The position numbers and the translations under genes are program-made. This document shows, in pieces, positions 1 to 52,616 of a stretch of DNA of 64,000 nucleotides. The stretch is from an uncultured Lachnospiraceae bacterium (GTDB taxonomy: Bacteria; Bacillota; Clostridia; TANB77; CAG-508). Positions within the stretch are counted from its first letter, which is position 1. The number at the start of each line of letters is the position of its first letter. Location of the stretch: assembly GCA_964489885.1 (NCBI GenBank), contig CAZAZX010000003.1, forward strand, positions 29,036 to 93,035. The letters run 5' to 3'. The notes under the pieces are model-generated. The model had not been told where the DNA came from and ran no database searches. It was given only the letters and a program-made list of their open reading frames with translations.

Positions 1-205
1 TTTATCTTATTTTATATTAACAAATCAAATAATGCAATATAAAACAAAAAATCTACTTCTTTTGTATTTAGAATTTAACTTTTGATAAGAACAAATAAAA
101 ACCTACCCAATCAACACGGCTTTAGCCATACTGGTTGTGCAGGTTTTTATCATCGATTATTCATCTTTACCATATTTTTCATCATATTCTTCTTGTGCTT
201 TTGTA

Positions 206-4551: not shown

Positions 4552-4944
4552 TTATACTCTTCTTCTTTTTGGTGGTCTACAACCATTATGTGGAATTGGA
4601 GTAACATCTTTAATCATGCTTATTTCTAACCCTGCAGTTTGTAAAGAACGTATTGCAGCTTCACGACCTGAACCTGGTCCTTTAACATAAACTTCTACAG
4701 TTTTTAATCCATGTTCCATTGCAGCTTTTGCAGCTGTTTCTGCCGCTTGTCCTGCAGCAAATGGTGTACTTTTTCTTGAACCTTTAAATCCTAGTCCACC
4801 AGCACTAGCCCATGAAATTACATTGCCTTGAACATCAGCAATTGTAACTATTGTATTGTTAAAGCTAGAATGAATATGAGCAGAACCTTTATCAATGTTC
4901 TTTCTATTTCTTTTTGCTACCTTTTTTGTACCTTTTACAGCCAT
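4552..4944 (-). CDS. rpsK: 30S ribosomal protein S11 (uS11), 130 aa
   Basis: Conserved S11 sequence and operon position. Confidence 0.95.
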
Positions 4945-6031: not shown

Positions 6032-6802
6032 TTAAAACAATGTCAATATTTCTGGCTCTTTTTCTGTAACTAAAATTGTATTTTCATAATGAGCTGACAA
6101 GCTTCCATCCTCTGTTATAATTGTCCATCCATCTTCTAATTCTAAAATATCTGGTTTTCCTGCAATAACCATAGGTTCAATTGCTAGTGTCATACCTGGT
6201 TCTAATTTAATACCTCTTCCAGCCCTTCCGTAATTTGGTATTCCAGGATCTTCATGCATTTGTCTTCCAATTCCATGTCCTTGAAATTCTCTTACTGCTG
6301 AATATCCCTTACTATGAATATATTCTCCTATTGCATGGCAAACATCACCTATTCTGTTACCTTTAACTGCATATTTTATCCCCTCGAAAAAAGCCTGTTG
6401 AGTTACATTTAATAAATCATAAGCATCTTTACTTCCTTTTCCAACAACGTAGCTTCTCGCAGCATCACCATTAAATCCATCTTTTAAAACCACTAAATCT
6501 ATACTAACAAGATCACCATCTTTTAATATAACTTGATCTGATGGTATCCCATGTATTACTTCATCATTTACTGAAATACATAAAGTTGCTGGAAAATTAG
6601 GTACCCCTCTTACTCCGCTAGGGAAATTTTTTTGTGCAGGTATACCTCCATGTTCTAAAATAAATCTTTCTGCAATTTTGTCAAGCTGTTTAGTTGAAAC
6701 TCCTGGTTTAATGTGTTTTTTTATCTCTTCATGTGTTAAATATGTTAATTTGCAAGCTTCTCTCATCAACTCAATTTCTCTTGAAGATTTAATATCAACC
6801 AA
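6032..6802 (-). CDS. map: Methionine aminopeptidase type I, 256 aa
   Basis: MetAP motifs; conserved position between adk and infA. Confidence 0.93.
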   Translation of the reverse strand: MVDIKSSREIELMREACKLTYLTHEEIKKHIKPGVSTKQLDKIAERFILEHGGIPAQKNFPSGVRGVPNFPATLCISVNDEVIHGIPSDQVILKDGDLVSIDLVVLKDGFNGDAARSYVVGKGSKDAYDLLNVTQQAFFEGIKYAVKGNRIGDVCHAIGEYIHSKGYSAVREFQGHGIGRQMHEDPGIPNYGRAGRGIKLEPGMTLAIEPMVIAGKPDILELEDGWTIITEDGSLSAHYENTILVTEKEPEILTLF

Positions 6803-23538: not shown

Positions 23539-24477
23539 CTAATTTTTAGAGTTTTTTACTAATTTTGCTATAAAAAACCCTTCCATAGTTTTAGTTGGCA
23601 ACACTTTTATTGCATAACTCAACTTATTATCTAAATTTGGCAAAGTATCTCTTATTTCAATATTCGTTTTTATTAGCTTTATATTGAAATTATTAATTGC
23701 CCAATTTAGTATATTTTCGTTTTCTTCCATATTAAGTGTACAAGTTGAATAAACCATTTCTCCCCCAGCTTTTAAACTATTATATGCACTTTCAAATAGT
23801 TTTTTTTGCATTTTTGCTAACTGATTCACTCTTTTGATAGACCAATCTCTATAAGTTCCTGGTGATTTTGTTAAAAAACGACCTTCTCCACTACAAGGTG
23901 CATCTAACAACACTTTATCAAAAAATTCATTATATTTTTCAAATATTTTTTCTCCTCTTCCATTTACTACATCGACAATATCTGCACCTTGAATATCTAT
24001 ATTATATTTTAACCTTTCACATCTTATTTTATCTAATTCATTTGCTAAGATATAACCATTATTTTGCATCATAGCTGACATTTGTGTGGTTTTACTTCCT
24101 GGTGCAGCTGTTAAATCTAATAACCTTTCTCCAGATTTTGGATTCAAAACTATTGGTGGAATCATACTAGATAAACTTTGTAAATATATATAACCTTTTT
24201 TGTATATATCTAATGTTTGTATTTCTTTTTCATTTGCATTTTTTATTATTAATGCGTCTTTATACCATGGGACTCTTTCAAATTTTATATTAATTTGTTT
24301 AAAATATTTCATTAAATCTTGAATATTATATTTTATGCTATTTACTCTCAATGTAGTGTATCTATCACTATTCATTCCAATTAAGATTTTATCAACAATA
24401 AGTGGAGAATAATTTTCATACAACTTTTCTATAAAATCATTTGGCAATCTTTTTTTAACATCATTAATTGATAGCAT
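23539..24477 (-). CDS. NOL1/NOP2/Sun-family rRNA m5C methyltransferase (RsmB/RsmF-like), 312 aa
   Basis: SAM-binding DLTAAPGSKT and a catalytic LLDAPCSGEG...TCT Cys pair. Confidence 0.8.
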   Translation of the reverse strand: MLSINDVKKRLPNDFIEKLYENYSPLIVDKILIGMNSDRYTTLRVNSIKYNIQDLMKYFKQINIKFERVPWYKDALIIKNANEKEIQTLDIYKKGYIYLQSLSSMIPPIVLNPKSGERLLDLTAAPGSKTTQMSAMMQNNGYILANELDKIRCERLKYNIDIQGADIVDVVNGRGEKIFEKYNEFFDKVLLDAPCSGEGRFLTKSPGTYRDWSIKRVNQLAKMQKKLFESAYNSLKAGGEMVYSTCTLNMEENENILNWAINNFNIKLIKTNIEIRDTLPNLDNKLSYAIKVLPTKTMEGFFIAKLVKNSKN

Positions 24478-24584
24478 CTTTCTTCTCTCCTTATTCCAAT
24501 AAATTGTACTATATAATTATCAAAAAATCAAAACCTTTTTCTTTCCATTTAAGTCATACAAAATAAATTAAATTTATTTTTTTC

Positions 24585-24613
24585 TTGACAAGATTTTATT
24601 AAAGGTTTATATT
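24585..24613 (+). promoter_or_regulatory. Putative sigma-A promoter of the orphan histidine kinase
   Basis: TTGACA-N17-TATATT, about 80 nt upstream of the SD AGGAGG-9nt-TTG start. Confidence 0.55.
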
Positions 24614-24691
24614 ATTGTCTGCTGGAAAATTAAGGAAATTATTTAAGTATAAATTATTGATTTATTTATTGTAAATAGGAGGTTTATAGTT

Positions 24692-25537
24692 TTGAGTAAA
24701 TTTGTAAAAATATTATTTTTTATTACTATACCAATTGAAATTATATTAATATTTTCACAGTTATATTTAATTTTTAATTATAATCAAATGTTGCAAATAT
24801 TTATAACAATTTTTAATATAATAAATATTTTAGCCATATTTATGCTTTCAATATTTAGTTATAAGAAAGCAGTAGAACTAAAAACAACTTATGAAAGCTT
24901 AGAGGAATCAAAACTGTACAACAAAACACTATTAGTTTTAAATGAAAATGTACGTTGTTTTAAACATGATTTTAGTAATATTATTCAAGCGATATTAGGC
25001 TATGTTCAGGCAAATGATTTTGAAGGACTAAAAAAGTATTTTCATCATCTATTAGATGATTGTCAGAAGCTTAACACTATTACAGCATTAAATCCTAATT
25101 TAATAAATAATCCTGCAATTTATAGTCTTGTAACAAATAAATATCAATTAGCTGATTCAAAAGGAATTAAATTTAATATAAATATCTTTTTAGACTTGAA
25201 AAAACTTAATATAAATATATATGAATTCACTAGAATTTTAGGTGTATTACTTGATAATGCAATTGAAGCAACAAGTGAGTGTAATGAAAAGGTAATTAAT
25301 TTTGATATTGAAATGGATGAAAAGAATCATAGGCAATTGCTTATTATTGAAAATACTTACAAAAATAAGAATGTTGATATAGAAAAAATTTTTGAAAAAG
25401 CCTATACTTCAAAACCTCATAATTCTGGTTTAGGCTTATGGGAAATACGTAAAATTTTAAATAAAAATAATAATTTGAATTTATTTACAACTAAAAATGA
25501 AAAATTTTTTACACAACAATTAGAAATATATTTATAA
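24692..25537 (+). CDS. AgrC/HPK10-type (GHKL) sensor histidine kinase with a minimal 2-TM sensor, 281 aa
   Basis: H-box FKHDFSNIIQAILGYV, N-box LLDNAIEA, and G-box GLGLWEIRKIL. There are only two N-terminal TM helices and no adjacent response regulator or agrBD-like genes. Confidence 0.7.
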   Translation: MSKFVKILFFITIPIEIILIFSQLYLIFNYNQMLQIFITIFNIINILAIFMLSIFSYKKAVELKTTYESLEESKLYNKTLLVLNENVRCFKHDFSNIIQAILGYVQANDFEGLKKYFHHLLDDCQKLNTITALNPNLINNPAIYSLVTNKYQLADSKGIKFNINIFLDLKKLNINIYEFTRILGVLLDNAIEATSECNEKVINFDIEMDEKNHRQLLIIENTYKNKNVDIEKIFEKAYTSKPHNSGLGLWEIRKILNKNNNLNLFTTKNEKFFTQQLEIYL

Positions 25538-25591
25538 TTAAATTAGAATAGAAAAATTAATTAAAAATTAGTTTTTCTATTCTAATTTAAT

Positions 25592-26272
25592 TTAATTACT
25601 TTCTAATATTTTCCAAGAACCTGTTATTTCTGGTAAGCATTTAAATGTCATTATTTCTTTTGTAATTGGGTGTGGGAAAGAAAGACTATATGCCCATAGT
25701 GTAATTTGCTTTCCTCTGCCTCTTGTTCCATATTTTTGATCTCCATAAAGGCTATGGCCTCTACTTGCAAATTGTACTCTTATTTGATGATGTCTTCCTG
25801 TATATAGTTTAACTTTTACTAAAGATAAATTTATATCTTCCTGATATTTTATTAATTCATATTCTAACTTCGCATATTTAGAATTTTTCGTACCTTCTTC
25901 AACAACTTTACTCAAATTATTTCTTTCATTTTTTAAAAGATAATCTTCTAATATCTCTCTTTTAGATTCTATTTTACCATCAACTATTGCAAGATAAATT
26001 TTTTCAAATTGCTTTGTTCTTACATATTCACTAAGTCTAGATGCAGCTTTGGACGTTTTTGCAAAAACCATTACCCCACCAACAGGTCTATCTAACCTAT
26101 GAACAAGTCCTAAATACACATTTCCCTGTTTATTATATTTTTTCTTTAAGTATTCTTTTATTATAGTTATCATATCTATATCGCCAGTCTTATCCCCCTG
26201 TGATGGTACATTTACCATTTTTTCTACTACTATAATATGATTATCTTCATATAAAACATTTAATTTTTGCAT
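25592..26272 (-). CDS. RluA-family pseudouridine synthase, 226 aa
   Basis: Catalytic HRLDRPVGGVMVFAKT motif. Confidence 0.85.
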   Translation of the reverse strand: MQKLNVLYEDNHIIVVEKMVNVPSQGDKTGDIDMITIIKEYLKKKYNKQGNVYLGLVHRLDRPVGGVMVFAKTSKAASRLSEYVRTKQFEKIYLAIVDGKIESKREILEDYLLKNERNNLSKVVEEGTKNSKYAKLEYELIKYQEDINLSLVKVKLYTGRHHQIRVQFASRGHSLYGDQKYGTRGRGKQITLWAYSLSFPHPITKEIMTFKCLPEITGSWKILESN

Positions 26273-27455: not shown

Positions 27456-29246
27456 CTAATTTTCAAGACTTTCTTTAATTCTTTTTGCTAAACTCTCAGT
27501 TATTCCCTTAATATTGCAAAGTTCTTCTATACTTGCATCTTTTATCTTTTGTACACTTCCAAAAGCTTTTAATAATTCTTGCTTCTTTTTTGGTCCTATA
27601 CCACTTATATTATCTAAAGCAGATTTATTCATTTCTTTGTCTCTAAGTTTTCTATGATATTCAATTGCTACATTATGAACTTCATCTTGAAAATTTGTAA
27701 TAGCTAATAATAAATTCTCAGAAATTTCAATTTCTTCTCTTTGTTCATTAATAAGTGCTCTTGTTTGATGTTTATCATTTTTTACCATTCCAAATATAGG
27801 AATGTTTAAATTATATTTATTTTCTGCTGTTCTAATTGCTCTTATTTGTGTTATTCCTCCATCTGCAAAAAATACATCTGGTAATGTTCCAAAGCCTCCT
27901 TTAGGATTATCTAAAGAATGTTTAATTCTTCTTGTTACAACTTCTTCCATACATTTTGGATCATCTTGTCCAATAACTGTTTTTATCTTAAATCTCCTTG
28001 ATAAATTTCTTTTAACTTCTCCATCTTGCATTACGCACATTCCAGCGACAATAAAGTTTCCAGAAATATTTGAAATATCAAATGATTCAATCTTTCTTGG
28101 CATTTTATCTAATTTAAGTTTTTCTTTTAATTCCATCAAAATTTCTGTTTTATCTTTTTGTTTATTTTCTAGAGTTATCTTCGCATTTCTTTGTGCCATC
28201 TCAACAAAACGCAATTTTTCTCCCCTTTGTGGATTTCTTAATTGGACTTTTTTACCTGACTTTTCAGACAAAATTTCTTCAATCAATTCTTTATCTTCAA
28301 TTTCTTCTTGGAGCATAATTTTATTTGGAATTTGCATACTATCAAAGTAGTATTGTTTAATAAACTCTGATAGTATTTCTTTATCATATTCATCTTTTAG
28401 TTCATTAAAAAAATAATGCTCTCTTCCAATCATTTTGCTTCCTCGTACAAAGAAAATTTCAATGCAAACTGCTAGCTCATTCTTATATAATCCTATAACA
28501 TCAATATTATTTTCTGATATATTTGATACTTTTTGTTCCTCAGAAATTCTTTCTATTGCTATTTTTCTATCTCTAGATTCTGCTGCTTTTTCATATTCTT
28601 GTCTATCTGAAAAACATCTAATTTCTTCATCTAATTTTTTTAGTATCTTTTCTGTCTTTCCATCTAAAAGTAAAATAATGTCATCTATTTGCTTTCTGTA
28701 TTCTTCTTTTGTTATATATCCCATACATGGCGCTGGGCATTTCTTTATATGATAATTTAGACAAGCCCTTGTATTAGATTTAAAGTTCCTACATTGCCTA
28801 ATTTTAAACCTTTCTCTAATGAAATTCACCATTTCTCTTGCAGCACCAGAATTTGCATACGGTCCAAAATATTTTGCCCCATCATTTAATATTCTTCTAG
28901 TAATAAAAACATTGGGATAATCAGATTGCATATCAATTTTTATATATGGATATGTCTTGTCATCTTTTAAAAGTACATTAAATTTAGGTCTATTCTTTTT
29001 TATTAAATTACATTCTAATATTAAAGCCTCAGCTTCATTGTCTGTAACAATGTATTCAAAATGATCAATAAGAGATACCATTTTTATTATTCTATTTGTC
29101 TTGTTATTTTTTCTAAAATATTGTCTTACTCTTCTTTTTAAAGAAATAGCCTTTCCAACATAAATAATAGTATCATTTTTATCATGCATTATATATACAC
29201 CTGGTTTGTCAGGCAGTTTTTTTATTTCACTTTCTATATCAAACAT
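27456..29246 (-). CDS. uvrC: Excinuclease ABC subunit C, 596 aa
   Basis: N-terminal GIY-YIG (GVYIMHDKNDTIIYVGKA), UvrBC motif, and C-terminal HhH. Confidence 0.95.
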   Translation of the reverse strand: MFDIESEIKKLPDKPGVYIMHDKNDTIIYVGKAISLKRRVRQYFRKNNKTNRIIKMVSLIDHFEYIVTDNEAEALILECNLIKKNRPKFNVLLKDDKTYPYIKIDMQSDYPNVFITRRILNDGAKYFGPYANSGAAREMVNFIRERFKIRQCRNFKSNTRACLNYHIKKCPAPCMGYITKEEYRKQIDDIILLLDGKTEKILKKLDEEIRCFSDRQEYEKAAESRDRKIAIERISEEQKVSNISENNIDVIGLYKNELAVCIEIFFVRGSKMIGREHYFFNELKDEYDKEILSEFIKQYYFDSMQIPNKIMLQEEIEDKELIEEILSEKSGKKVQLRNPQRGEKLRFVEMAQRNAKITLENKQKDKTEILMELKEKLKLDKMPRKIESFDISNISGNFIVAGMCVMQDGEVKRNLSRRFKIKTVIGQDDPKCMEEVVTRRIKHSLDNPKGGFGTLPDVFFADGGITQIRAIRTAENKYNLNIPIFGMVKNDKHQTRALINEQREEIEISENLLLAITNFQDEVHNVAIEYHRKLRDKEMNKSALDNISGIGPKKKQELLKAFGSVQKIKDASIEELCNIKGITESLAKRIKESLEN

Positions 29247-29295
29247 AAATTCACCTTGTTTATTATTATATCATCAAATACACATTTTTTGAATA

Positions 29296-29328
29296 TATAA
29301 TCAAAAAAGAAAGACACTTCCTAAAAAA
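29296..29328 (-). terminator. Rho-independent terminator after the GC-rich MBL gene
   Basis: Stem CACTTCC / GGAAGTG with a T-run on the minus strand, 40 nt downstream of the stop. Confidence 0.5.
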
Positions 29329-29369
29329 AGGAAGTGCCAAAAGATTAGAGATAGCTTTTCATCTAGAAG

Positions 29370-30800
29370 TCAGTTAGAAATTTGAATGGCCTTCTCGATG
29401 CCGTATTCATCAATACGGAAGCCAGTGTCCCTCGAGATTACGCCTACGCGTTTGATTCCGAGTTCTTCGTAAATGCGCTCAGCAAAAATCTTCTTGACTG
29501 AAGTATCGCCGTGATTTACGACAACCGATTTGATGTTTTTGAATTTCTTCAGCATCGAAATCAGTTCATCGGCCTTTGCGTGGCCAGAAAACTCACAAGT
29601 AAACTCTACTTGTGCCTTCTTCATGCCGAGAATGCCTCCAGAACCTCCGCCAAACACAAACTCATTCGGTGTTGTGTCTTTCAATTTTCTGCCATAGGTT
29701 CCCTCAGCACAATACCCTGTGAATTGGATTAATGCTTTGGGATCCCACAAATAGCGAGGAATCCATGCCTGTGCAGGTCCATAGGAGCCCATTCCGCTCG
29801 TCGTAACGACAATCTTCTGCTTGCTTGATGCAACCAACGCTTCGCGCGTTTCATGCAAAGTAATAAGCTGAAGATTATCCGGCAGGAAGTCCATCATCTC
29901 AGGCTTAAGGTTGAGTGCACCAGATTGATACAACTTTGTGTATTCTATTGCCAACTTTCCATCAAGAAAAATTGGAATATTTTTGTTGATCTTTCCAGCA
30001 TTTTGCATCCTCTTGAGCCTATAGAGAATTTCTTGTGCCCTTCCCAGCGAAAAAACTGGAATCAAAATTGATCCACCGTTTTGTGCTGTTGTAGACACGT
30101 TCTTGCAAAAGACTTTCTTGCTCTGTTCTTCATCCGTAGTATCCACGTCTCCATACGTCGACTCGCAAATGATATTGAGTGGCATCGAAAGAACCTCTTG
30201 TGGAATGCACGGGACATCAAAAAAGATGTTCTTAGGTGCATAATCTCCTGTGAAAAGAAGGTTAAGTTTTCCGCCGTACCCATCCAGGAATTGGATGAGT
30301 ACCATACATGCGCCGACAAGGTGACCATTGCCAATAAGCATGAACCGGCAATAGTCGTCAAAAACGTACCATTGGTTGAGGCTTACTCCCTTTGTCTGTT
30401 GCAACACACTTGTCACATCAGACAGTTCATACATTGGCGGCTTATTATTGCGTTTCGCACGAGTCTTCTGCACATGGCATGCATCCCTCAATGCAATTGG
30501 CAATAGGGCCTCAGATACCTCGCTACAGACGAAGTCGCCACTATAACCACCTTTCGTCATCAATGGCAACCGTCCAATATGGTCGGCATGAACGTGCGTA
30601 ATAAATGCGCCGTCCAATTCTTTCGGGTCGAAGATTAACGACCCATTATACTGCTCGTTGACCCGTTCTTGGAAAATTCCACAGTCAATGCTGTAGCGAC
30701 GCAATTCCTCATTTGGAATGTGCACTACAGAGAGCAGGTTTGACCCAGTAACACAAGAATGCGCTGCCATCAGGTCAATATAAATGTTTGCCTTACTCAT
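29370..30800 (-). CDS. MBL-fold metallo-hydrolase of the beta-CASP (RNA/DNA nuclease) type, 476 aa, inside a GC-rich island
   Basis: HVHADH metallo-beta-lactamase motif plus downstream Asp/His motifs laid out in the beta-CASP/RMMBL order. The gene is about 45-50% GC against a ~28% background, with many spurious overlapping ORFs on both strands. Confidence 0.8.
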   Translation of the reverse strand: MSKANIYIDLMAAHSCVTGSNLLSVVHIPNEELRRYSIDCGIFQERVNEQYNGSLIFDPKELDGAFITHVHADHIGRLPLMTKGGYSGDFVCSEVSEALLPIALRDACHVQKTRAKRNNKPPMYELSDVTSVLQQTKGVSLNQWYVFDDYCRFMLIGNGHLVGACMVLIQFLDGYGGKLNLLFTGDYAPKNIFFDVPCIPQEVLSMPLNIICESTYGDVDTTDEEQSKKVFCKNVSTTAQNGGSILIPVFSLGRAQEILYRLKRMQNAGKINKNIPIFLDGKLAIEYTKLYQSGALNLKPEMMDFLPDNLQLITLHETREALVASSKQKIVVTTSGMGSYGPAQAWIPRYLWDPKALIQFTGYCAEGTYGRKLKDTTPNEFVFGGGSGGILGMKKAQVEFTCEFSGHAKADELISMLKKFKNIKSVVVNHGDTSVKKIFAERIYEELGIKRVGVISRDTGFRIDEYGIEKAIQISN

Positions 30801-30916
30801 TCCTGATGTCTCCTCTCTTTTTTAATGAGTCAGAAAATTCTGATTACTTTTATTTTAACATTTAGCAAATATTATGTCAATTAATTTTAAAACATTTGCA
30901 AAAAAATATAAATTTT

Positions 30917-30945
30917 TTGACATAAATTATTATTTTCATTATAAT
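30917..30945 (+). promoter_or_regulatory. Putative sigma-A promoter of glmS
   Basis: Perfect consensus TTGACA-N17-TATAAT, 22 nt upstream of the GGAGG SD. Confidence 0.6.
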
Positions 30946-30967
30946 ATATCACATATGGAGGATTGTT

Positions 30968-32761
30968 ATGTGTGGAATAGTTGGATATGTAGGCAATAAA
31001 AGTGCCCAACCTATATTAATTAATGGGCTTACGAATTTAGAATATCGAGGATATGATTCAGCTGGCTTTGCCACTATTGAAAATAACAAAATTAATGTTC
31101 AAAAAGAAGTTGGCAGAGTAAAATATTTAGAGAATATCTCTAATAAAAATATTTCTGATTCTACAATTGGTATTGCTCATACAAGATGGGCAACTCATGG
31201 AAGAGCATCTAAAGAAAATGCTCACCCACATTTGGATAACTCAAACTCATTTGCTGTTGTTCACAATGGAATAATTGAAAACTATATTGAATTAAAGGAT
31301 TTTCTTTCAAAAGAAGGTTATACTTTTTTATCAGAAACTGATACAGAAGTAATTCCAAATTTAATTCATTATTATTACAATCAGTCAAATAACTTTTTAA
31401 AGGCTGTAGACTTCTCTTGTAGAAAATTAAAAGGAAGTTACTCTATTGCAATTATGTGCAAATTTGAACCTAAAAAAATAATTGTTGCAAAAAAAGACAG
31501 CCCTTTGGTAATTGGAAAAGGAAATAATGAATTTTATATAAGTTCAGATGTAGCTGCTGTTTTGTCATATACTAAAGATTTTTATTTTATTAAGGACTTA
31601 GAGTTGGCTGAAATTACAAGAGAGAATATTAGTTTTTTTGATTTTGATTTAAAACCAATATCAAAGGAAATTAAAAGGCTAGATTTAGATAGTAATGCAG
31701 CTCAAAAAAATGGTTATGAAGACTATATGCTTAAGGAAATTAATGAACAACCTGATGCAATTAGAAAAACATTGCAAGAAGAAAATAATGAATTTGATTA
31801 CAGCACTATTAAAAGTTATAATAAAATTTATATAATCGCTTGTGGTACGGCTATGCACGCTGGTTTAGTTGGTAAAAAATTATTTGAAGAGCTTTGTAGA
31901 ATTCCAGTTGAAGTAGATGTTGCATCTGAATTTAGATATCGAAATGCAATCATTGATAATAAAACTCTTGCAATTTTTATCAGTCAATCTGGTGAAACTG
32001 CAGATACAATTTCTGCATTAAAGTTATGCAAAGAAAAGAATGCTAAAACAATCGCAATTACAAACGTAATTGGTAGTAGCATTACAAGGCAGGCTGATTA
32101 TGTGTTTTACACAATGGCAGGACCTGAAATTGCTGTTGCCTCTACAAAAGCTTATACTTCTCAAATTGCATTATTAGCAAAAATGGTTATTAACTTTGCT
32201 AAAGAATTAAATTATGATTCAAATAAACTTAAACAAATTCAAGAAGATTTATCTAAACTTCCAGAACAAATTAGCCAAATATTACGAAAAACAGATCATA
32301 TTAAAACTATTGCTAAAGAAATTTATTCAATAAAAGATGCTTTCTATATTGGTCGTGGAATTGATTATTGTTCATCAATGGAGGCCTCTTTAAAAATAAA
32401 AGAAATAGCCTATGTTCACTCTGAAAGCTATGCTTCTGGTGAATTAAAGCATGGTTCTATTGCCTTAATTGAAGATGGAATATATGTGATTTCTATAATA
32501 ACAGATTCAGAATTAAAAGATAAATCAATTTCAAACATACAAGAAGTTATCACAAGGGGTGCAAAATCAATTGTTGTTACAAATCAAAATATAGATAAAT
32601 CAATATTTACACATATAATTGAAATACCAAAGACAAATACTTTGCTATCACCTATTCTTTCTGTTATTCCGCTTCAGCTACTTGCATACTATGTGGCAAA
32701 AGAAAAGGGCTTAGATGTTGATAAACCTAGAAATTTAGCAAAGTCTGTAACTGTTGAATAA
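30968..32761 (+). CDS. glmS: Glutamine--fructose-6-phosphate aminotransferase, 597 aa
   Basis: N-terminal MCGIVGY nucleophile and two SIS domains. Confidence 0.95.
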   Translation: MCGIVGYVGNKSAQPILINGLTNLEYRGYDSAGFATIENNKINVQKEVGRVKYLENISNKNISDSTIGIAHTRWATHGRASKENAHPHLDNSNSFAVVHNGIIENYIELKDFLSKEGYTFLSETDTEVIPNLIHYYYNQSNNFLKAVDFSCRKLKGSYSIAIMCKFEPKKIIVAKKDSPLVIGKGNNEFYISSDVAAVLSYTKDFYFIKDLELAEITRENISFFDFDLKPISKEIKRLDLDSNAAQKNGYEDYMLKEINEQPDAIRKTLQEENNEFDYSTIKSYNKIYIIACGTAMHAGLVGKKLFEELCRIPVEVDVASEFRYRNAIIDNKTLAIFISQSGETADTISALKLCKEKNAKTIAITNVIGSSITRQADYVFYTMAGPEIAVASTKAYTSQIALLAKMVINFAKELNYDSNKLKQIQEDLSKLPEQISQILRKTDHIKTIAKEIYSIKDAFYIGRGIDYCSSMEASLKIKEIAYVHSESYASGELKHGSIALIEDGIYVISIITDSELKDKSISNIQEVITRGAKSIVVTNQNIDKSIFTHIIEIPKTNTLLSPILSVIPLQLLAYYVAKEKGLDVDKPRNLAKSVTVE

Positions 32762-33568: not shown

Positions 33569-33584
33569 AACTGTAATTTATGAA

Positions 33585-33900
33585 ACAACATTGAAAGAGA
33601 CTATATTAAATTTCTTTTTTATAGAGAGTTTATGTTTGGTGGAAATAAACAAAAAGGGTTTAAGAATCTACTCTGGAGTTTTTAGTGAAAGCTAAACCGC
33701 TAATACTGGTTATCGTATTTTAGAGTATAATAAAAGGTGGTACCACGTATATAGACGTCCTTTAGCATTTTGCTATTGGACGTTTTATTATGAAACCACA
33801 AGTTGAGTCTAGTTCTTATTGCGAAAGCAACAAGGTTCAGGGGTACCCACCCACGACTTTGCCGTGTTGGTGGGGCGGGTTCTTATCTATCTTTATTCTT
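33585..33900 (+). promoter_or_regulatory. T-box riboswitch leader (serine specifier) controlling serS
   Basis: Conserved T-box sequence AAAAGGTGGTACCACG at 33732-33747. Terminator helix CCCACC...GGTGGG plus a T-run at about 33847-33900 could alternatively pair with the T-box. Candidate specifier GAA-UCU-A at about 33690; AGAGA-like motif upstream. Confidence 0.7.
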
Positions 33901-33957
33901 TAGTTTATAATTGACCTAACTGGTCATAAATATATTTTTTAGAAAGGGTTGATTAAT

Positions 33958-35247
33958 ATGTTAGATATTAAATTTTTAAGAGAAAATCCAGAACTTGTAA
34001 AGGAAAACATAAGGAAAAAATTTCAAAACCATAAATTGGTATTGGTTGATGAAGTTATCGATTTAGATGAAAAGTATAGAAAGGCTAAATCTTCTGGAGA
34101 TGACTTAAGAGCAGAGCGTAAATCTTTAAGTTCTGAAATTGGAAATTTAATGCGTCAAGGTAAGAAAGATGAAGCTGAAAAAGTAAAAGCTAAAGTTCAA
34201 GAAATTAACAATAAACTTGAAGAAAATGAAAAACTTGAAAATGAATATTCTGAAGAAGTAAAAATAAGAATGATGAAAATTCCTAATATGATGGATCCTT
34301 CTGTTCCTATTGGTGAAGACGACTCTAAAAATGTTGAAGTTCAAAGATATGGCGAGCCAAAGGTTCCTGACTATGAAATTCCCTTCCATGGTGAAATTCT
34401 AGAAGCCTTAAATGGAGTTGATTTTGATGCTGCCCGTCGTGTTGCTGGGAATGGTTTTTATTATTTAATGGGTGACATTGCAAGACTTCATTCTGCTTGT
34501 CTAACTTATGCTAGAGATTTTATGATTAACAAGGGATTTACATATTGTATTCCTCCATTTATGATTCGTTCAGACGTTGTTACTGGTGTTATGAGCTTCG
34601 AAGAAATGGATGCTATGATGTACAAAATTGAAGATGAAGATTTATATTTAATTGGCACTAGCGAACACTCTATGATTGGTAAATTCAAAGACCAAATTTT
34701 AAGAAAAGAAGATTTACCTTATACTATGACTTCTTATTCTCCTTGCTTTAGAAAAGAAAAGGGAGCTCATGGTATTGAAGAACGTGGTATTTATCGTATC
34801 CATCAATTTGAAAAACAAGAAATGATTGTTATTTGCGAACCTGAAGATAGTAAAAAATGGTATGATAAAATGTGGTCTTATACTGTTGAACTTTTTAGAA
34901 GCATGAATATTCCTGTTCGTACTTTGGAATGTTGCAGTGGAGACTTAGCTGACTTAAAATCAAAAAGTGTTGATGTTGAAGCATGGAGCCCTAGACAAAA
35001 GAAATATTTTGAAGTTGGCAGTTGCTCTAATTTAACTGATGCTCAATCTAGAAGATTAGGAATACGTATTAAAGGTGAAAATGAAAATTATTTTGCTCAT
35101 ACTCTAAATAATACTGTTATTGCCCCACCTCGTATGTTGATTGCTATTTTAGAAAACAATTATCAACCTGATGGAAGTGTAATTGTTCCTGAAGTTTTAA
35201 GACCTTATATGGGTGGACTCGAAAAAATTGAAATAAAGAAAAAATAG
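33958..35247 (+). CDS. serS: Seryl-tRNA synthetase, ~429 aa
   Basis: N-terminal coiled-coil arm and class II core motifs. The start is taken at the ATG 9 nt after the AGAAAGGG SD; the listed ORF begins 3 codons earlier at a TTG. Confidence 0.95.
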   Translation: MLDIKFLRENPELVKENIRKKFQNHKLVLVDEVIDLDEKYRKAKSSGDDLRAERKSLSSEIGNLMRQGKKDEAEKVKAKVQEINNKLEENEKLENEYSEEVKIRMMKIPNMMDPSVPIGEDDSKNVEVQRYGEPKVPDYEIPFHGEILEALNGVDFDAARRVAGNGFYYLMGDIARLHSACLTYARDFMINKGFTYCIPPFMIRSDVVTGVMSFEEMDAMMYKIEDEDLYLIGTSEHSMIGKFKDQILRKEDLPYTMTSYSPCFRKEKGAHGIEERGIYRIHQFEKQEMIVICEPEDSKKWYDKMWSYTVELFRSMNIPVRTLECCSGDLADLKSKSVDVEAWSPRQKKYFEVGSCSNLTDAQSRRLGIRIKGENENYFAHTLNNTVIAPPRMLIAILENNYQPDGSVIVPEVLRPYMGGLEKIEIKKK

Positions 35248-52540: not shown

Positions 52541-52616
52541 TGGCTGGGGTACTAGGATTCGAACCTAGGAAATGTCGGAATCAGAATCCGATGCCTTACC
52601 ACTTGGCGATACCCCA
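52541..52616 (-). tRNA. tRNA-Gln (anticodon CUG), 76 nt, CCA encoded
   Basis: Hand-folded cloverleaf: acceptor stem TGGGGTA / TACCCCA, D-arm GCC-AAGTGGTAA-GGC, anticodon stem TCGGA / TCCGA with loop TTCTGAT, T-arm CTAGG-TTCGAAT-CCTAG, discriminator G. It resembles Bacillus tRNA-Gln. Confidence 0.85.

Follow-up and report, generated by a model that had tools for sequence, protein, structure and literature searches.

A GC-rich beta-CASP nuclease gene is a long-standing resident upstream of uvrC in AT-rich gut Clostridia

RESULTS

The locus and its signals

The window, by which we mean the whole 64,000-nucleotide stretch analyzed here, comes from an uncultured Lachnospiraceae bacterium and carries a gene for a protein of the metallo-beta-lactamase (MBL) beta-CASP family between glmS and uvrC. 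The gene order, with glmS on the plus strand and the beta-CASP gene followed by uvrC on the minus strand, was as the preliminary description of this DNA had stated. The features of the locus are as follows:

27456–29246, minus strand: uvrC, the conserved downstream flank, GC3 0.14 (ORF listing, Pfam, composition)
29265–29293, minus strand: promoter-like site of uvrC, TTCAAA-17 nt-TG-n-TATAAT (consensus scan)
29313–29338, minus strand: intrinsic terminator of the beta-CASP gene, GGCACUUCC-loop-GGAAGUGUC and then a U-run (terminator scan, inverted repeat I17)
29370–30800, minus strand: beta-CASP coding sequence, 476 aa (ORF listing, Pfam, AlphaFold2 model, Foldseek, composition, folding analysis)
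30062–30361, minus strand: alternative-frame ORF, 99 aa (ORF listing)
30081–30506, plus strand: antisense ORF, 141 aa, taken as a by-product and not as a gene (ORF listing)
30579–30599, minus strand: MBL motif 2, T68-H69-V-H71-A-D73-H74, with the HxHxDH zinc ligands (invariant in 29 homologs)
30801–30844, minus strand: predicted 5' UTR with the RBS AGAGAGGAG at 30810–30818 (start inferred from the −10 box)
30852–30880, minus strand: sigma-A-type promoter of the beta-CASP gene, TTGACA-17 nt-TG-n-TAAAAT (consensus scan, 11 of 12 matches, extended −10)
30917–30945: glmS promoter, 12 of 12 consensus positions (consensus scan)
30968–32761, plus strand: glmS, the divergent upstream flank, GC3 0.15 (ORF listing, composition)

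The strong promoter of the beta-CASP gene was conserved in nucleotide sequence in no fewer than five lineages that have an ortholog in the same position (slot lineages, see below). Its blocks ATTGACAT and (A/G)ATGTTAAAATA were kept in the syntenic L086, L087, L088, and L091, despite beta-CASP proteins that are just 47–63% identical. At the other end, the intrinsic terminator separates the gene from uvrC, and the orthologous loci show hairpins at the same place. Since a promoter-like site precedes uvrC, this gene is probably transcribed apart from the beta-CASP gene. The minimum free energy (MFE) structure has the RBS paired to CUGCUCUCU of the coding sequence (30729–30737; inverted repeats I24 and I10). 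The predicted accessibility of the RBS region (−15 to +3) was 0.38, only marginally lower than the 0.40–0.76 of five neighboring genes, and this 5' UTR feature is at most suggestive.

The preliminary description had seen no integrase, transposase, or tRNA attachment site nearby. This was borne out: mobility genes are absent from the neighboring genes (Pfam lists of the co-linear contig L003), and the lone tRNA of the window is a tRNA-Gln at 52541–52616; rRNA genes are absent. The search for direct repeats bracketing the GC transitions gave nothing convincing, only short, chance-like matches in AT-rich spacer DNA. No CRISPR repeat array was found in the 64 kb.

Composition and codon usage

The claim of a GC-rich gene in an AT-rich background proved real by windowed GC and codon usage. 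The ORF had a GC content of 44.9%, against 28.4% in the remainder of the window; 300-nt windows in its interior reached 0.45–0.49, and within about 50 nt of either end the values fell to 0.20–0.27. GC1/GC2/GC3 were 0.50/0.36/0.48, compared with about 0.40/0.30/0.15 in the five neighboring genes (neighbor GC3 about 14.5%). Among the roughly 48 long ORFs of the window it was the sole GC3 outlier, the next highest value being 0.214. The string that had been quoted as an example is present at about 29403–29452, but it is 50 nt long with about 54% GC, and not 60 nt with 52%.

The gene differed from its neighbors in Arg codons (AGA 6% vs. 71%, CGC plus CGG 50% vs. 0%), in Leu codons (TTA 5% vs. 57%), and in Ile codons (ATA 3% vs. 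36%), and its RSCU correlated with that of the host neighbor genes at only 0.12. In the window allele, ATA was counted 1 in 37, AGA 1 in 18, and NCC 7 times against 22 for NCG. Third-position composition was close to uniform, and C-ending codons were up equally in the two-fold NNY families. By our own estimate, the avoidance of ATA, AGA, and TTA goes beyond a simple GC push on host usage. The overall pattern resembles that of mid-GC Firmicutes, as a foreign origin would give.

Two selective explanations at the codon level were discarded. Translational selection for optimal codons does not fit, since, to our knowledge, highly expressed genes of Firmicutes do not favor the enriched codons (CGC/CGG, CTC/CTG, TCG, ACG, and GGC). 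Selection restricted to poorly decoded codons is unlikely, because NNC codons rise equally in two-fold families read by one tRNA and GC2 is shifted too.

The long spurious ORFs of the preliminary description exist, namely the 141-aa antisense and the 99-aa alternative-frame ORFs given above. The antisense ORF appears to exist only because stop codons are infrequent in GC-rich DNA, as it covers less than one third of the beta-CASP gene, whose fast protein evolution would clash with an overlapping gene.

Protein identity

The Pfam search supported the family assigned earlier, with all three domains above threshold: Beta-Casp with 84 bits (cut-off 27.7; residues 255–373), Lactamase_B with 28.1 bits (cut-off 22.7), and RMMBL with 46.1 bits (cut-off 21.6). 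DRMBL had no match. The HVHADH motif is indeed present, at residues 69–74 after T68. MBL motifs 1–4 (D39, H69xH71xD73H74, H160, and D186) and beta-CASP motifs A, B, and C (E213, H407, and H430) were invariant among 29 homologs. The protein, described earlier as not RNase J-like at its N-terminus, is not RNase J, for the NF047419 model gave 12.5 bits against a cut-off of 820. Our results thus showed that the gene encodes a complete stand-alone beta-CASP metallo-nuclease of the CPSF73/TTHA0252 type, in which the predicted catalytic residues are all present.

The AlphaFold2 model had a pLDDT of 91.9. Its best Foldseek matches were aCPSF1 (2xr1, TM 0.82), FttA, Cas14, and TTHA0252 (target-normalised TM 0.84–0.86), and a PDB sequence search returned the same set. 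Every top structural neighbor is an RNA enzyme. Callebaut et al. reportedly described, in 2002, His at motif C as typical of RNA-type beta-CASP members and Val as typical of the DNA type. The window protein has both the motif C His (H430) and the RMMBL segment of the RNA-type branch. Based on these two characters and on the S405-x-H407 motif, the enzyme would be a zinc-dependent RNA nuclease that cuts internally, from the 5' end (5'-3' exonuclease), or in both ways.

The stand-alone bacterial RNase TTHA0252 of Thermus thermophilus (PDB 2dkf, 3iek) has the same MBL plus beta-CASP architecture without KH or extra domains (Phmmer E = 8e-35), and its motif B S-x-H is found in the window protein as S405/H407. 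The two differ in that identity is about 26% and the window protein exceeds TTHA0252 by 45 residues and has a beta-hairpin tail at its C-terminus (residues 450–476). For TTHA0252, we know of no report of unusual composition or mRNA structure.

Archaeal aCPSF1/FttA and eukaryotic CPSF73/IntS11 gave the best matches to the catalytic core (2xr1, E = 2e-38) and share the RNA-type His at motif C. Unlike aCPSF1, the 476-aa window protein has no pair of N-terminal KH domains; TIGR03675 (aCPSF1/FttA) scored 195.7 bits against a cut-off of 580, and its match starts at profile position 202, past the KH region. Bacterial CPSF homologs are described as occurring "mainly in Clostridia and Proteobacteria", with the physiological role unknown (PMC8501993).

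Nominally, the best NCBIfam match was cas14_MBL_CASP, the beta-CASP nuclease of type VII CRISPR-Cas, with 200 bits, and the Cas14 structures 8yhd and 9j9e were among the top matches. However, the cut-off is 800 bits, the window protein is about 130 residues shorter, and no cas7, cas5, or CRISPR array lies near the gene. RNase J1/J2 of Firmicutes belong to the same superfamily and have the same likely chemistry (two-zinc RNA endo/5'-exonuclease), but the window protein has a different N-terminus and lacks the C-terminal domain of RNase J.

A defense or conflict role, one of the candidate functions proposed at first, found no support: PADLOC gave no defense-system match, IMG/VR held no phage homologs, the neighbors are housekeeping genes, and dN/dS within the species is 0.09.

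Orthologs in the same position

Within the species, the beta-CASP gene occupied the same slot in five independent assemblies. Nine further lineages (L086, L087, L088, L091, L093, L097, L098, L099, and L100) had an ortholog directly upstream of uvrC; in L087 the contig carries only 58 aa of uvrC, and in L098 it ends 200 nt past the gene, so that synteny was judged on the upstream DUF2508-BofA alone. The gene glmS lay upstream in seven of these nine (L098 lacks it, and in L100 it falls outside the contig), and thus in eight of the ten slot lineages overall. Relatives were collected through the beta-CASP protein itself, so these counts refer to gene-carrying lineages only. The slot genes formed a monophyletic clade in 91 of 100 neighbor-joining bootstraps. 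In the sister clade, the contexts differed between L095, L105, L007, and L106, and no conserved partner gene was found among them. The neighbors there were YhbY and an AAA ATPase (L095), lysS/PhoH2/recJ (L105), an FtsH-like gene and lexA (L007), and a flavin reductase and a GH18 gene (L106).

Compared with the window, the slot lineages had UvrC proteins 78–86% identical and SerS proteins 88–89% identical, but their beta-CASP proteins were just 46–63% identical. At fourfold-degenerate sites, identity between the slot lineages was that expected from composition alone, in the beta-CASP gene as much as in its flanks. Within the species, two alleles of the gene were dS 0.12 apart, compared with 0.06–0.09 in the flanking genes, and both had GC3 0.48; between the window and L002, all 12 differences in the gene were synonymous.

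The search for a donor covered 5.8 billion proteins, one genome per GTDB species, metagenome contigs, and IMG/VR. Among the matches listed, there was no donor in a GC-richer host and no relative above 63% identity outside the species; the closest non-self homolog in the protein set, at 63%, was itself syntenic. Codon-usage matching against the neighbor genes of about 170 loci reached at best r = 0.56, too low a value to be informative.

The preliminary description had read the gene as a recent horizontal acquisition and had named, as the finding that would speak against this, orthologs of similar composition in the same uvrC–glmS slot in relatives. This is what the genomes contain: ten lineages have syntenic, GC-elevated orthologs with saturated synonymous sites. 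The phylogeny that was to point to a donor lineage instead placed the slot genes in one clade, with no GC-richer donor among the matches listed. The gene is a long-standing chromosomal resident directly upstream of uvrC in a gut Clostridia clade of about 28% GC, and not a recent insertion.

A single ancestral import followed by amelioration was also rejected. Lawrence and Ochman reportedly modeled amelioration for imported genes, and our own calculation follows their logic. At a host AT bias of about 5.7:1, a GC3 excess would decay several-fold faster than neutral divergence accumulates; as the fourfold-degenerate sites are saturated between lineages, the excess should have decayed.

High GC as a trait of the family

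In every slot lineage, GC3 of the beta-CASP gene was elevated (0.25–0.48, vs. 0.11–0.20 in the flanking genes). The trait extends to AT-rich loci in general (neighbor GC3 below 0.25): among 45 such loci, which include some near-identical ones, GC3 of the beta-CASP gene was above the neighbor median in 43 (median +0.11) and above every neighbor in 30. In distant homologs with neighbor GC3 of 0.25–0.5, the difference centered on zero. The members with high GC3 (window 0.48, L099 0.45, L102 0.48, L105 0.49, and L106 0.47) were scattered over the tree and adjoined low-GC3 relatives. All family members of at least 32% identity were in AT-rich hosts, with none in a mid- or high-GC host among the matches listed.

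The rise in GC ended at the ORF boundaries even where two GC-rich genes adjoin, and between such ORFs the intergenic DNA resembled that of the host, 100-nt windows falling as low as 18% GC. GC1, GC2, and GC3 climbed together across the orthologs. Root-to-tip protein divergence showed no significant correlation with GC3 (rho = 0.27, p = 0.11). The polarised polymorphisms, too few for a choice between loss and upkeep of GC, leaned from G/C to A/T (about 6–10 vs. 3 in the opposite direction), the pattern expected if GC decays rather than being held.

Predicted folding of the mRNA

All folding evidence given here is thermodynamic prediction. The mean MFE per 150 nt was −41.5 kcal/mol, compared with −35.2 for synonymous shuffles that preserve dinucleotides (z = −5.1). 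Local shuffles in blocks of 50 codons gave z = −6.6, and windows of 60, 100, and 300 nt gave −7.8, −7.0, and −4.8; the excess in folding energy was 15–19% in these windows and about 18% as an overall figure. With a second, independent program (fold_strand), z was −4.2, −2.3, and −2.4 over the three thirds of the gene, and −0.3 for uvrC. The neighbors in the window had z = −0.4 to −1.1 in the same shuffle test.

Of 15 lineages, 13 had orthologs with z between −2.9 and −7.8; two slot orthologs had little excess (L088, z = −0.3; L093, z = −2.1). Twenty further family members had a median z of −2.0, compared with −0.2 for their neighbors (Mann–Whitney p = 8e-5). In a GC-matched control set of 16 ORFs taken from mid-GC genomes, four of them distant beta-CASP homologs, z ranged from +1.8 to −2.4, around −0.5. 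In all eight genes compared, the excess of the sense strand was greater than that of the antisense strand (antisense z = −0.7 to −4.1). The within-species comparison aimed at structure-preserving synonymous changes gave z = −4.0 forward and −0.4 in reverse, an asymmetric result from a biased design.

The excess was diffuse and gene-wide: no position-conserved RNA element was found across 16 orthologs, and no Rfam family matched. Many short inverted repeats lie in the GC-rich segment.

DISCUSSION

Probable selection on the transcript

Our preferred explanation, which we regard as probable, is that selection acts on the transcript of this resident RNA nuclease gene and favors an mRNA that is rich in GC and heavily folded. 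We ascribe the GC content most likely to selection on the transcript, and not to a foreign origin, because it is bounded by the ORF, recurs in AT-rich hosts, outlasts synonymous turnover, and comes with a diffuse folding excess that is stronger on the sense strand. The mid-GC-like codon usage, the small excess in L088 and L093, the G/C-to-A/T lean of the few polymorphisms, and an RBS accessibility barely below that of the neighbors weigh against this explanation. Such selection would favor a stable folded mRNA, which would need G:C pairs amid an A+U-rich background, and GC-richness would have persisted or been regenerated after full turnover of the synonymous sites. The transcriptome is about 72% A+U and presumably has little structure; against this background, a message that folds tightly would escape single-strand-specific RNases, possibly including the nuclease it encodes. 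Alternatively, or in addition, folding could throttle translation of the mRNA. We infer that the folding serves one of these two ends, self-protection or throttled translation; the mRNA of a CPSF73-like nuclease would then be built for resistance to its own product or for sparing expression.

If the transcript-level explanation holds, this would be an unusually strong case of selection acting on how a complete bacterial coding sequence folds, with a folding excess of 15–19% kept across lineages whose synonymous sites are saturated. The gene also provides a first experimental entry point to the CPSF73-like beta-CASP nucleases of bacteria. The locus is a counter-example to the detection of horizontal transfer by composition: GC3 is threefold that of the genome and codon usage is alien, yet the gene is an old syntenic resident. 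It resembles a classical compositional genomic island in its atypical GC (0.449 vs. 0.284), GC3 (0.48 vs. 0.145), and codon usage relative to the host. It differs from one in that the gene sits at the same site in all ten lineages of our gene-carrying sample, has neither mobility signatures nor closest relatives that match a donor, and shows an anomaly confined to the ORF that has outlasted synonymous saturation.

Other explanations

A single recent insertion of a foreign GC-rich nuclease gene between housekeeping genes would account for the strongly atypical GC and codon usage (RSCU r of 0.12 with the neighbors) and for the lone occurrence of such a gene in 64 kb. We consider it very improbable in view of the same slot in ten lineages with saturated synonymous sites, the orthologous promoter, the monophyletic slot clade, and the two alleles that are dS 0.12 apart and each still at GC3 0.48. 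Mobility genes, a tRNA attachment site, and bracketing repeats were all missing, and the best non-self match among those listed was a syntenic one at 63%. A different form of import is recurrent xenologous or allelic replacement in the conserved slot, by alleles from unsampled mid-GC genomes or elements, with the GC brought in anew in each lineage. This is unlikely, although several observations agree with it: the mid-GC-Firmicute-like codons (the ATA, AGA, and NCC/NCG counts above), GC1 plus GC2 within the range of homologs at equilibrium in genomes of 42–47% GC, the scatter of high-GC3 members in the tree, and the variable context in the wider family. In addition, two adjacent L105 genes share GC-rich codon usage (r = 0.75), and the matrices are incongruent, L086 and L091 being 89.5% identical in a partial UvrC but just 50% in the beta-CASP protein. 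Against it, the exchange would have to be ORF-exact, between a conserved native promoter and terminator, and the DNA between two adjacent GC-rich ORFs is host-like. Imported mid-GC genes would have no folding excess, as in the controls; codon-usage matching yielded no donor; and the heavily sampled gut Lachnospiraceae and Oscillospiraceae gave, among the matches listed, homologs of just 27–31% identity.

The GC could also have risen neutrally at this locus with no transcript function, through GC-biased gene conversion (gBGC) in a recombination hot spot or because local mutation is free of the host's AT bias. GC3 elevation linked to recombination has been documented in bacteria (PMC4450053). 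The joint rise of GC1, GC2, and GC3 across orthologs is as expected under nucleotide-level pressure, the equal gain of C in two-fold NNY families with one tRNA argues against tRNA-level selection, and third positions are nearly uniform in composition; the gene tree is also incongruent with the flanks, and dS is somewhat higher than in these. Nevertheless, we find this explanation quite unlikely. It predicts neither the folding excess over composition-preserving shuffles nor the asymmetry between sense and antisense, the effect is confined to the ORF, and glmS, an equally divergent and incongruent neighbor, has a normal GC3 of 0.11–0.17. Reported gBGC effects are far smaller than the +10 to +34 GC3 points seen here. 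A somewhat less probable reading still concerns function, namely a DNA-repair nuclease that partners UvrC, SNM1/PSO2-like or similar to the ligase-associated exonuclease. It would explain why the gene immediately precedes uvrC, on the same strand, in every one of the ten slot lineages; homologs adjoin lexA in L007 and recJ in L105, and the beta-CASP fold includes DNA nucleases as well. The RNA-type His at motif C, the presence of RMMBL with DRMBL unmatched, and the structural neighbors, all RNA enzymes, speak against it. The model of the ligase-associated DNA-damage exonuclease (TIGR04122) scored 38 bits against a cut-off of 325, and no ligase lies nearby; the gene has its own terminator and uvrC a separate promoter-like site, and the adjacency to uvrC is missing in the sister clade. 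Finally, a hidden second function of the GC-rich segment (an antisense or overlapping gene, an embedded ncRNA, or a DNA-level hairpin element) is suggested by the long antisense and alternative-frame ORFs, the short inverted repeats, and the antisense folding excess. It is hardly credible given the diffuse excess with neither an Rfam match nor a position-conserved element in 16 orthologs, the short reach of the antisense ORF, a protein evolving too fast for dual coding, and a sense excess that is always above the antisense one.

Precedents and a narrower version

Coming back to selection on the transcript, excess folding along a whole sequence has a counterpart in the genome-scale ordered RNA structure (GORS) of some RNA viruses, where an excess of about 15–19%, as found here, is regarded as strong; the present case is a chromosomal bacterial mRNA and not a viral genome. 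MazF-type RNases, with their target-site-depleted mRNAs, are a precedent for nuclease specificity shaping particular messages. No recognition motif is part of the present case, and the link between structure and nuclease is conjecture.

A narrower version of the transcript-level explanation, possible but doubtful, is self-immunity, in which the nuclease mRNA would have evolved high GC and gene-wide ordered structure against its own product, an attacker of the weakly folded A+U-rich RNAs that prevail in these cells. The enzyme would work either as an RNase or, in the manner of FttA, as a co-transcriptional "torpedo", and its own transcript would be spared as the one heavily base-paired mRNA in cells of 28% GC. 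Target avoidance would then be encoded in RNA structure and not in a sequence motif. This device may be shared by a few further genes, for example the PIN-PhoH and FtsH-like ones found adjacent in relatives.

Composition and identity of the β-CASP gene

The gene encoding the putative β-CASP nuclease has the following surroundings in the window:
27456–29246, minus strand: uvrC
29370–30800, minus strand: β-CASP ORF, 476 aa
30880–30852, minus strand: β-CASP promoter (TTGACA, 17 nt, TG-n-TAAAAT), from a sequence scan
30968–32761, plus strand: glmS

The ORF has 44.9% GC versus 28.4% over the other 62.6 kb of the window. Inside it, 300-nt windows had 45%–49% GC, and values were back to 20%–27% within about 50 nt of either end. 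The anomaly is greatest at synonymous positions: GC3 is 0.48, whereas about 48 other long ORFs have 0.145 as median and 0.214 as highest value. Codon usage differs in kind from that of the neighbours; AGA accounts for 71% of Arg codons in the neighbours and 6% in the β-CASP gene, TTA for 57% and 5% of Leu codons, ATA for 36% and 3% of Ile codons, and CGC plus CGG for 0% and 50% of Arg codons. ATA, AGA, and TTA are rarer in the window allele than a simple push toward GC would predict. Because its usage resembles that of a mid-GC Firmicute, a foreign episode may have occurred in the window lineage. The preliminary description was right on coordinates, gene order, and family; the GC-rich string offered there as an example is present in the gene, with a length of 50 nt instead of 60.

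The protein matches Lactamase_B, Beta-Casp, and RMMBL in Pfam above threshold, and its HVHADH motif occupies residues 69–74 (window 30579–30596). Across 29 aligned homologs, all the canonical β-CASP residues (D39, H69/H71/D73/H74, H160, D186, E213, H407, and H430) were invariant, and the AlphaFold2 model is confident (pLDDT 91.9). The closest PDB matches were archaeal aCPSF1/FttA, Cas14, Thermus TTHA0252, CPSF73, and IntS11. The window protein lacks the KH domains of aCPSF1, and its scores were far under the equivalog cut-offs of aCPSF1, Cas14, RNase J, and the ligase-associated exonuclease.

Callebaut and coworkers reportedly showed in 2002 that a motif C His and the RMMBL segment mark the RNA-type branch of the β-CASP family. 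Since both are present, the sequence places the window protein in this branch. The locus holds a complete gene, served by a promoter and a terminator of its own, for an RNA-type β-CASP nuclease of predicted activity. The protein is one of the bacterial “CPSF homologs ... mainly in Clostridia and Proteobacteria,” described as lacking a known physiological function (PMC8501993); it is a member of a known, functionally uncharacterised enzyme group. The defence role suggested earlier has no support: the protein had no matches in PADLOC and no relatives in IMG/VR.

Long-term residence upstream of uvrC

In five independent assemblies of the same species, the β-CASP gene was found at the same place and was identical or 98% identical. 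The next-best homologs placed on contigs were P0002 (63% identity), P0003 (60%), P0005, P0006, P0008, P0009, P0011, P0013, and P0023 (46%). Seven of these nine have a recognisable uvrC immediately downstream, in the same orientation; the L087 contig holds just a 58-aa stretch of uvrC, and that of L098 stops 200 nt past the β-CASP gene. A divergent glmS lies upstream in 7/9; L098 has BofA as upstream neighbour and no glmS, and in L100 the glmS position falls off the contig.

By sequence, the hosts that share this slot are clearly distinct lineages, with 78%–86% identity to the window in UvrC and 88%–89% in SerS. At fourfold-degenerate sites, similarity between the window and each slot lineage did not exceed the base-composition expectation, for flanking genes and the β-CASP gene alike. 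The promoter is kept at the nucleotide level in four slot lineages whose proteins are just 47%–63% identical. NJ analysis grouped the slot genes in a single clade with long branches (91% bootstrap); its sister is a large clade with short branches, made up of 471-aa proteins from other AT-rich Clostridia in varied contexts.

These results show that the β-CASP gene is a long-term resident of a conserved slot. The recent horizontal acquisition that had been proposed was not borne out, as orthologs with elevated GC3 occupy the same position across related lineages. No integrase or tRNA target site was found at the locus, and no repeat bracketing the GC transitions. Within the species, dN/dS is 0.09, indicating purifying selection, and the window and the conspecific L002 allele differ by 12 changes, every one of them synonymous. 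The β-CASP and UvrC distance matrices are incongruent, which suggests, at the sequence level, that alleles have been exchanged among species of the clade.

At CDS positions 1110–1117, five substitutions in 8 nt split the window and L001 alleles from those of L002 and L003. This cluster resembles a single multi-nucleotide change or a micro-conversion tract more than independent mutations.

GC enrichment across the family

GC3 of the β-CASP gene ranged from 0.245 to 0.484 over the ten slot lineages and was at least 0.35 in eight of them, compared with 0.11–0.20 in flanking genes. In 45 loci with neighbour GC3 below 0.25, some of them near-identical, the β-CASP gene exceeded the neighbour median in 43 (median +0.11) and every neighbour in 30. 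Among distant homologs, the difference was centred on zero where neighbour GC3 was 0.25–0.5, and its median was +0.04 where it was above 0.5. The elevation ends at the ORF boundaries. In the sister-clade locus L105, the β-CASP gene and an adjoining PIN-PhoH gene both have a GC3 of 0.49, and the spacer averages 29% GC, with 100-nt windows down to 18%. The GC enrichment is therefore ORF-confined and family-wide.

The strongly GC-rich members (GC3 of 0.48 in the window, 0.45 in L099, 0.48 in L102, 0.49 in L105, and 0.47 in L106) are dispersed over the tree, beside low-GC3 relatives 48%–68% identical to them. Among the matches listed, no family member at least 32% identical to the window protein came from a mid- or high-GC host. 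A single ancestral import of a GC-rich gene cannot yield the present GC3, because synonymous sites are saturated and, by our calculation, AT-biased mutation would remove excess GC more quickly than neutral divergence builds up. Therefore, the GC content of these genes must be either kept up or restored separately in each lineage. The few polymorphisms that could be polarised in the β-CASP gene lean from G/C to A/T.

Predicted folding of the mRNA

The native β-CASP CDS had a mean predicted folding energy of −41.5 kcal/mol per 150 nt, versus −35.2 for shuffles that held protein, codon usage, and dinucleotide content constant (z = −5.1; negative values mean more folded). Shuffling within local 50-codon blocks gave z = −6.6, with 18/18 windows under expectation, and lengths of 60, 100, and 300 nt gave −7.8, −7.0, and −4.8; the folding excess was 15%–19%. 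A separate tool, fold_strand, with ordinary dinucleotide shuffles gave −4.2, −2.3, and −2.4 for the thirds of the gene and −0.3 for the uvrC start. As controls, four neighbouring window genes had z from −0.4 to −1.1, and 16 GC-matched ORFs of mid-GC hosts, among which were four distant β-CASP homologs, from +1.8 to −2.4. The controls show the predicted excess to be specific.

Orthologs had z of −2.9 to −7.8 in 13 of the 15 lineages tested; the slot orthologs L088 and L093 had little excess. In 20 further members from AT-rich hosts the median was −2.0, compared with −0.2 for a neighbouring gene of the same loci (Mann–Whitney p = 8e-5). Low-GC3 members can still give a strong z (L104, −5.9), and the sense-strand excess was greater than the antisense one in 8/8 genes. 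The excess of predicted folding is thus family-wide, and the hyper-structured mRNA predicted here is a second, independent anomaly. It is diffuse and not a discrete conserved element; an Rfam search of the gene found no matching family. A within-species test for structure-preserving substitutions, biased in its design, reached significance in one direction and gave no signal when reversed. In the window, the ribosome-binding site (30810–30818) is predicted to pair with CDS segment 30729–30737, and its accessibility is slightly lower than in neighbouring genes.

We infer that selection on the transcript drives the GC-rich composition of the β-CASP gene. Horizontal transfer could account for codon usage such as that of the window allele, and biased gene conversion for GC enrichment, but neither predicts an excess of mRNA folding, so the predicted hyper-folding favours selection on the transcript. 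Stable helices need G:C pairs, and such selection would therefore also account for the GC enrichment. The enzyme would act on single-stranded RNA, and folding would shield its message, perhaps against the enzyme itself, or limit translation, or both. We know of no prior description of such an mRNA-level property for a gene of this enzyme group; the predicted hyper-folding of a nuclease mRNA was unexpected, and it emerged from computation alone.

Neighbouring genes and elements

Two other genes adjoining β-CASP homologs have ORF-confined GC enrichment:
L105 6601–7983, plus strand: PIN-PhoH gene (PhoH2-type RNase/helicase), GC3 0.49, folding z −2.2
L007 5725–7830, plus strand: FtsH-like AAA/M41 protease gene, GC3 0.36, folding z −4.6

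Their codon usage matches that of the adjoining homolog (r = 0.75 and 0.71, respectively), and the GC-rich, folded-mRNA phenomenon may involve a small set of genes in the genomes concerned.

The glmS frame breaks at an identical codon, after ...ACGTAMHAGLV, in four relatives, on the minus strand of each locus:
L086 ~6380–6395, minus strand: glmS break
L087 ~120–135, minus strand: glmS break
L097 ~125–140, minus strand: glmS break
L091 ~4740–4755, minus strand: glmS break

The 0 frame there reads GT(T/A) CGG, with a stop 4–10 codons on, and omitting the C of CGG recovers the remaining GlmS (SIS domains). The window counterpart (~31868–31879) is GTT GGT AAA, and glmS is intact. CGG represents 0/100 Arg codons in the neighbouring genes of the window. 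The break is a candidate for programmed +1 frameshifting at a “hungry” CGG codon, conserved among the four relatives; alternatively, glmS may be a conserved split gene in them. GlmS is unusually divergent among slot lineages (mostly 57%–72% identity, 47% in one fragment pair; SerS 88%–92%, UvrC 78%–90%), yet its GC3 is normal. No glmS ribozyme was found upstream of the window glmS, where the spacer (30801–30967) is just 167 nt and had no Rfam matches. L098 has no glmS between BofA and the β-CASP gene, and L091 has an additional 380-aa ORF, without a Pfam match, between glmS and the β-CASP gene.

Of the 11 β-CASP members that have Arg at the N-terminal position given by the consensus MG-K-C-R-x-Y, 10 encode it with the host-rare CGG, and the other uses CGA:
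β-CASP codon 6/7, CGG Arg: L087, L088, L093, L095, L097, L098, L099, L102, L105, L007

This CGG persists although synonymous sites elsewhere are saturated; pooled, CGG makes up 17% of Arg codons in these genes. In the window, the equivalent codon 5 (~30786–30788) has lost Arg and encodes Asn (AAC). The N-terminal CGG may act on translation as a pause or throttle codon.

Three further features were noted nearby:
33582–33765, plus strand: T-box leader (96 bits), upstream of serS (33949–35247)
24692–25537, plus strand: SpoB_a/HATPase_c_5-type sensor kinase gene, 281 aa
27174–27449, minus strand: small ORF between uvrC and a SAM-dependent methyltransferase gene, no Pfam match

Positions 24300–25600 are the most AT-rich stretch near the β-CASP gene (17%–22% GC). 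At the site equivalent to that of the sensor kinase, downstream of a pseudouridine synthase gene, L088 and L093 have an AgrB gene and a short peptide ORF, and L093 also has a kinase and a LytTR regulator; the gene content suggests a variable agr-like quorum-sensing locus. The small ORF next to uvrC, called as 62–77 aa on related contigs, occurs in all slot lineages with contigs extending that far.
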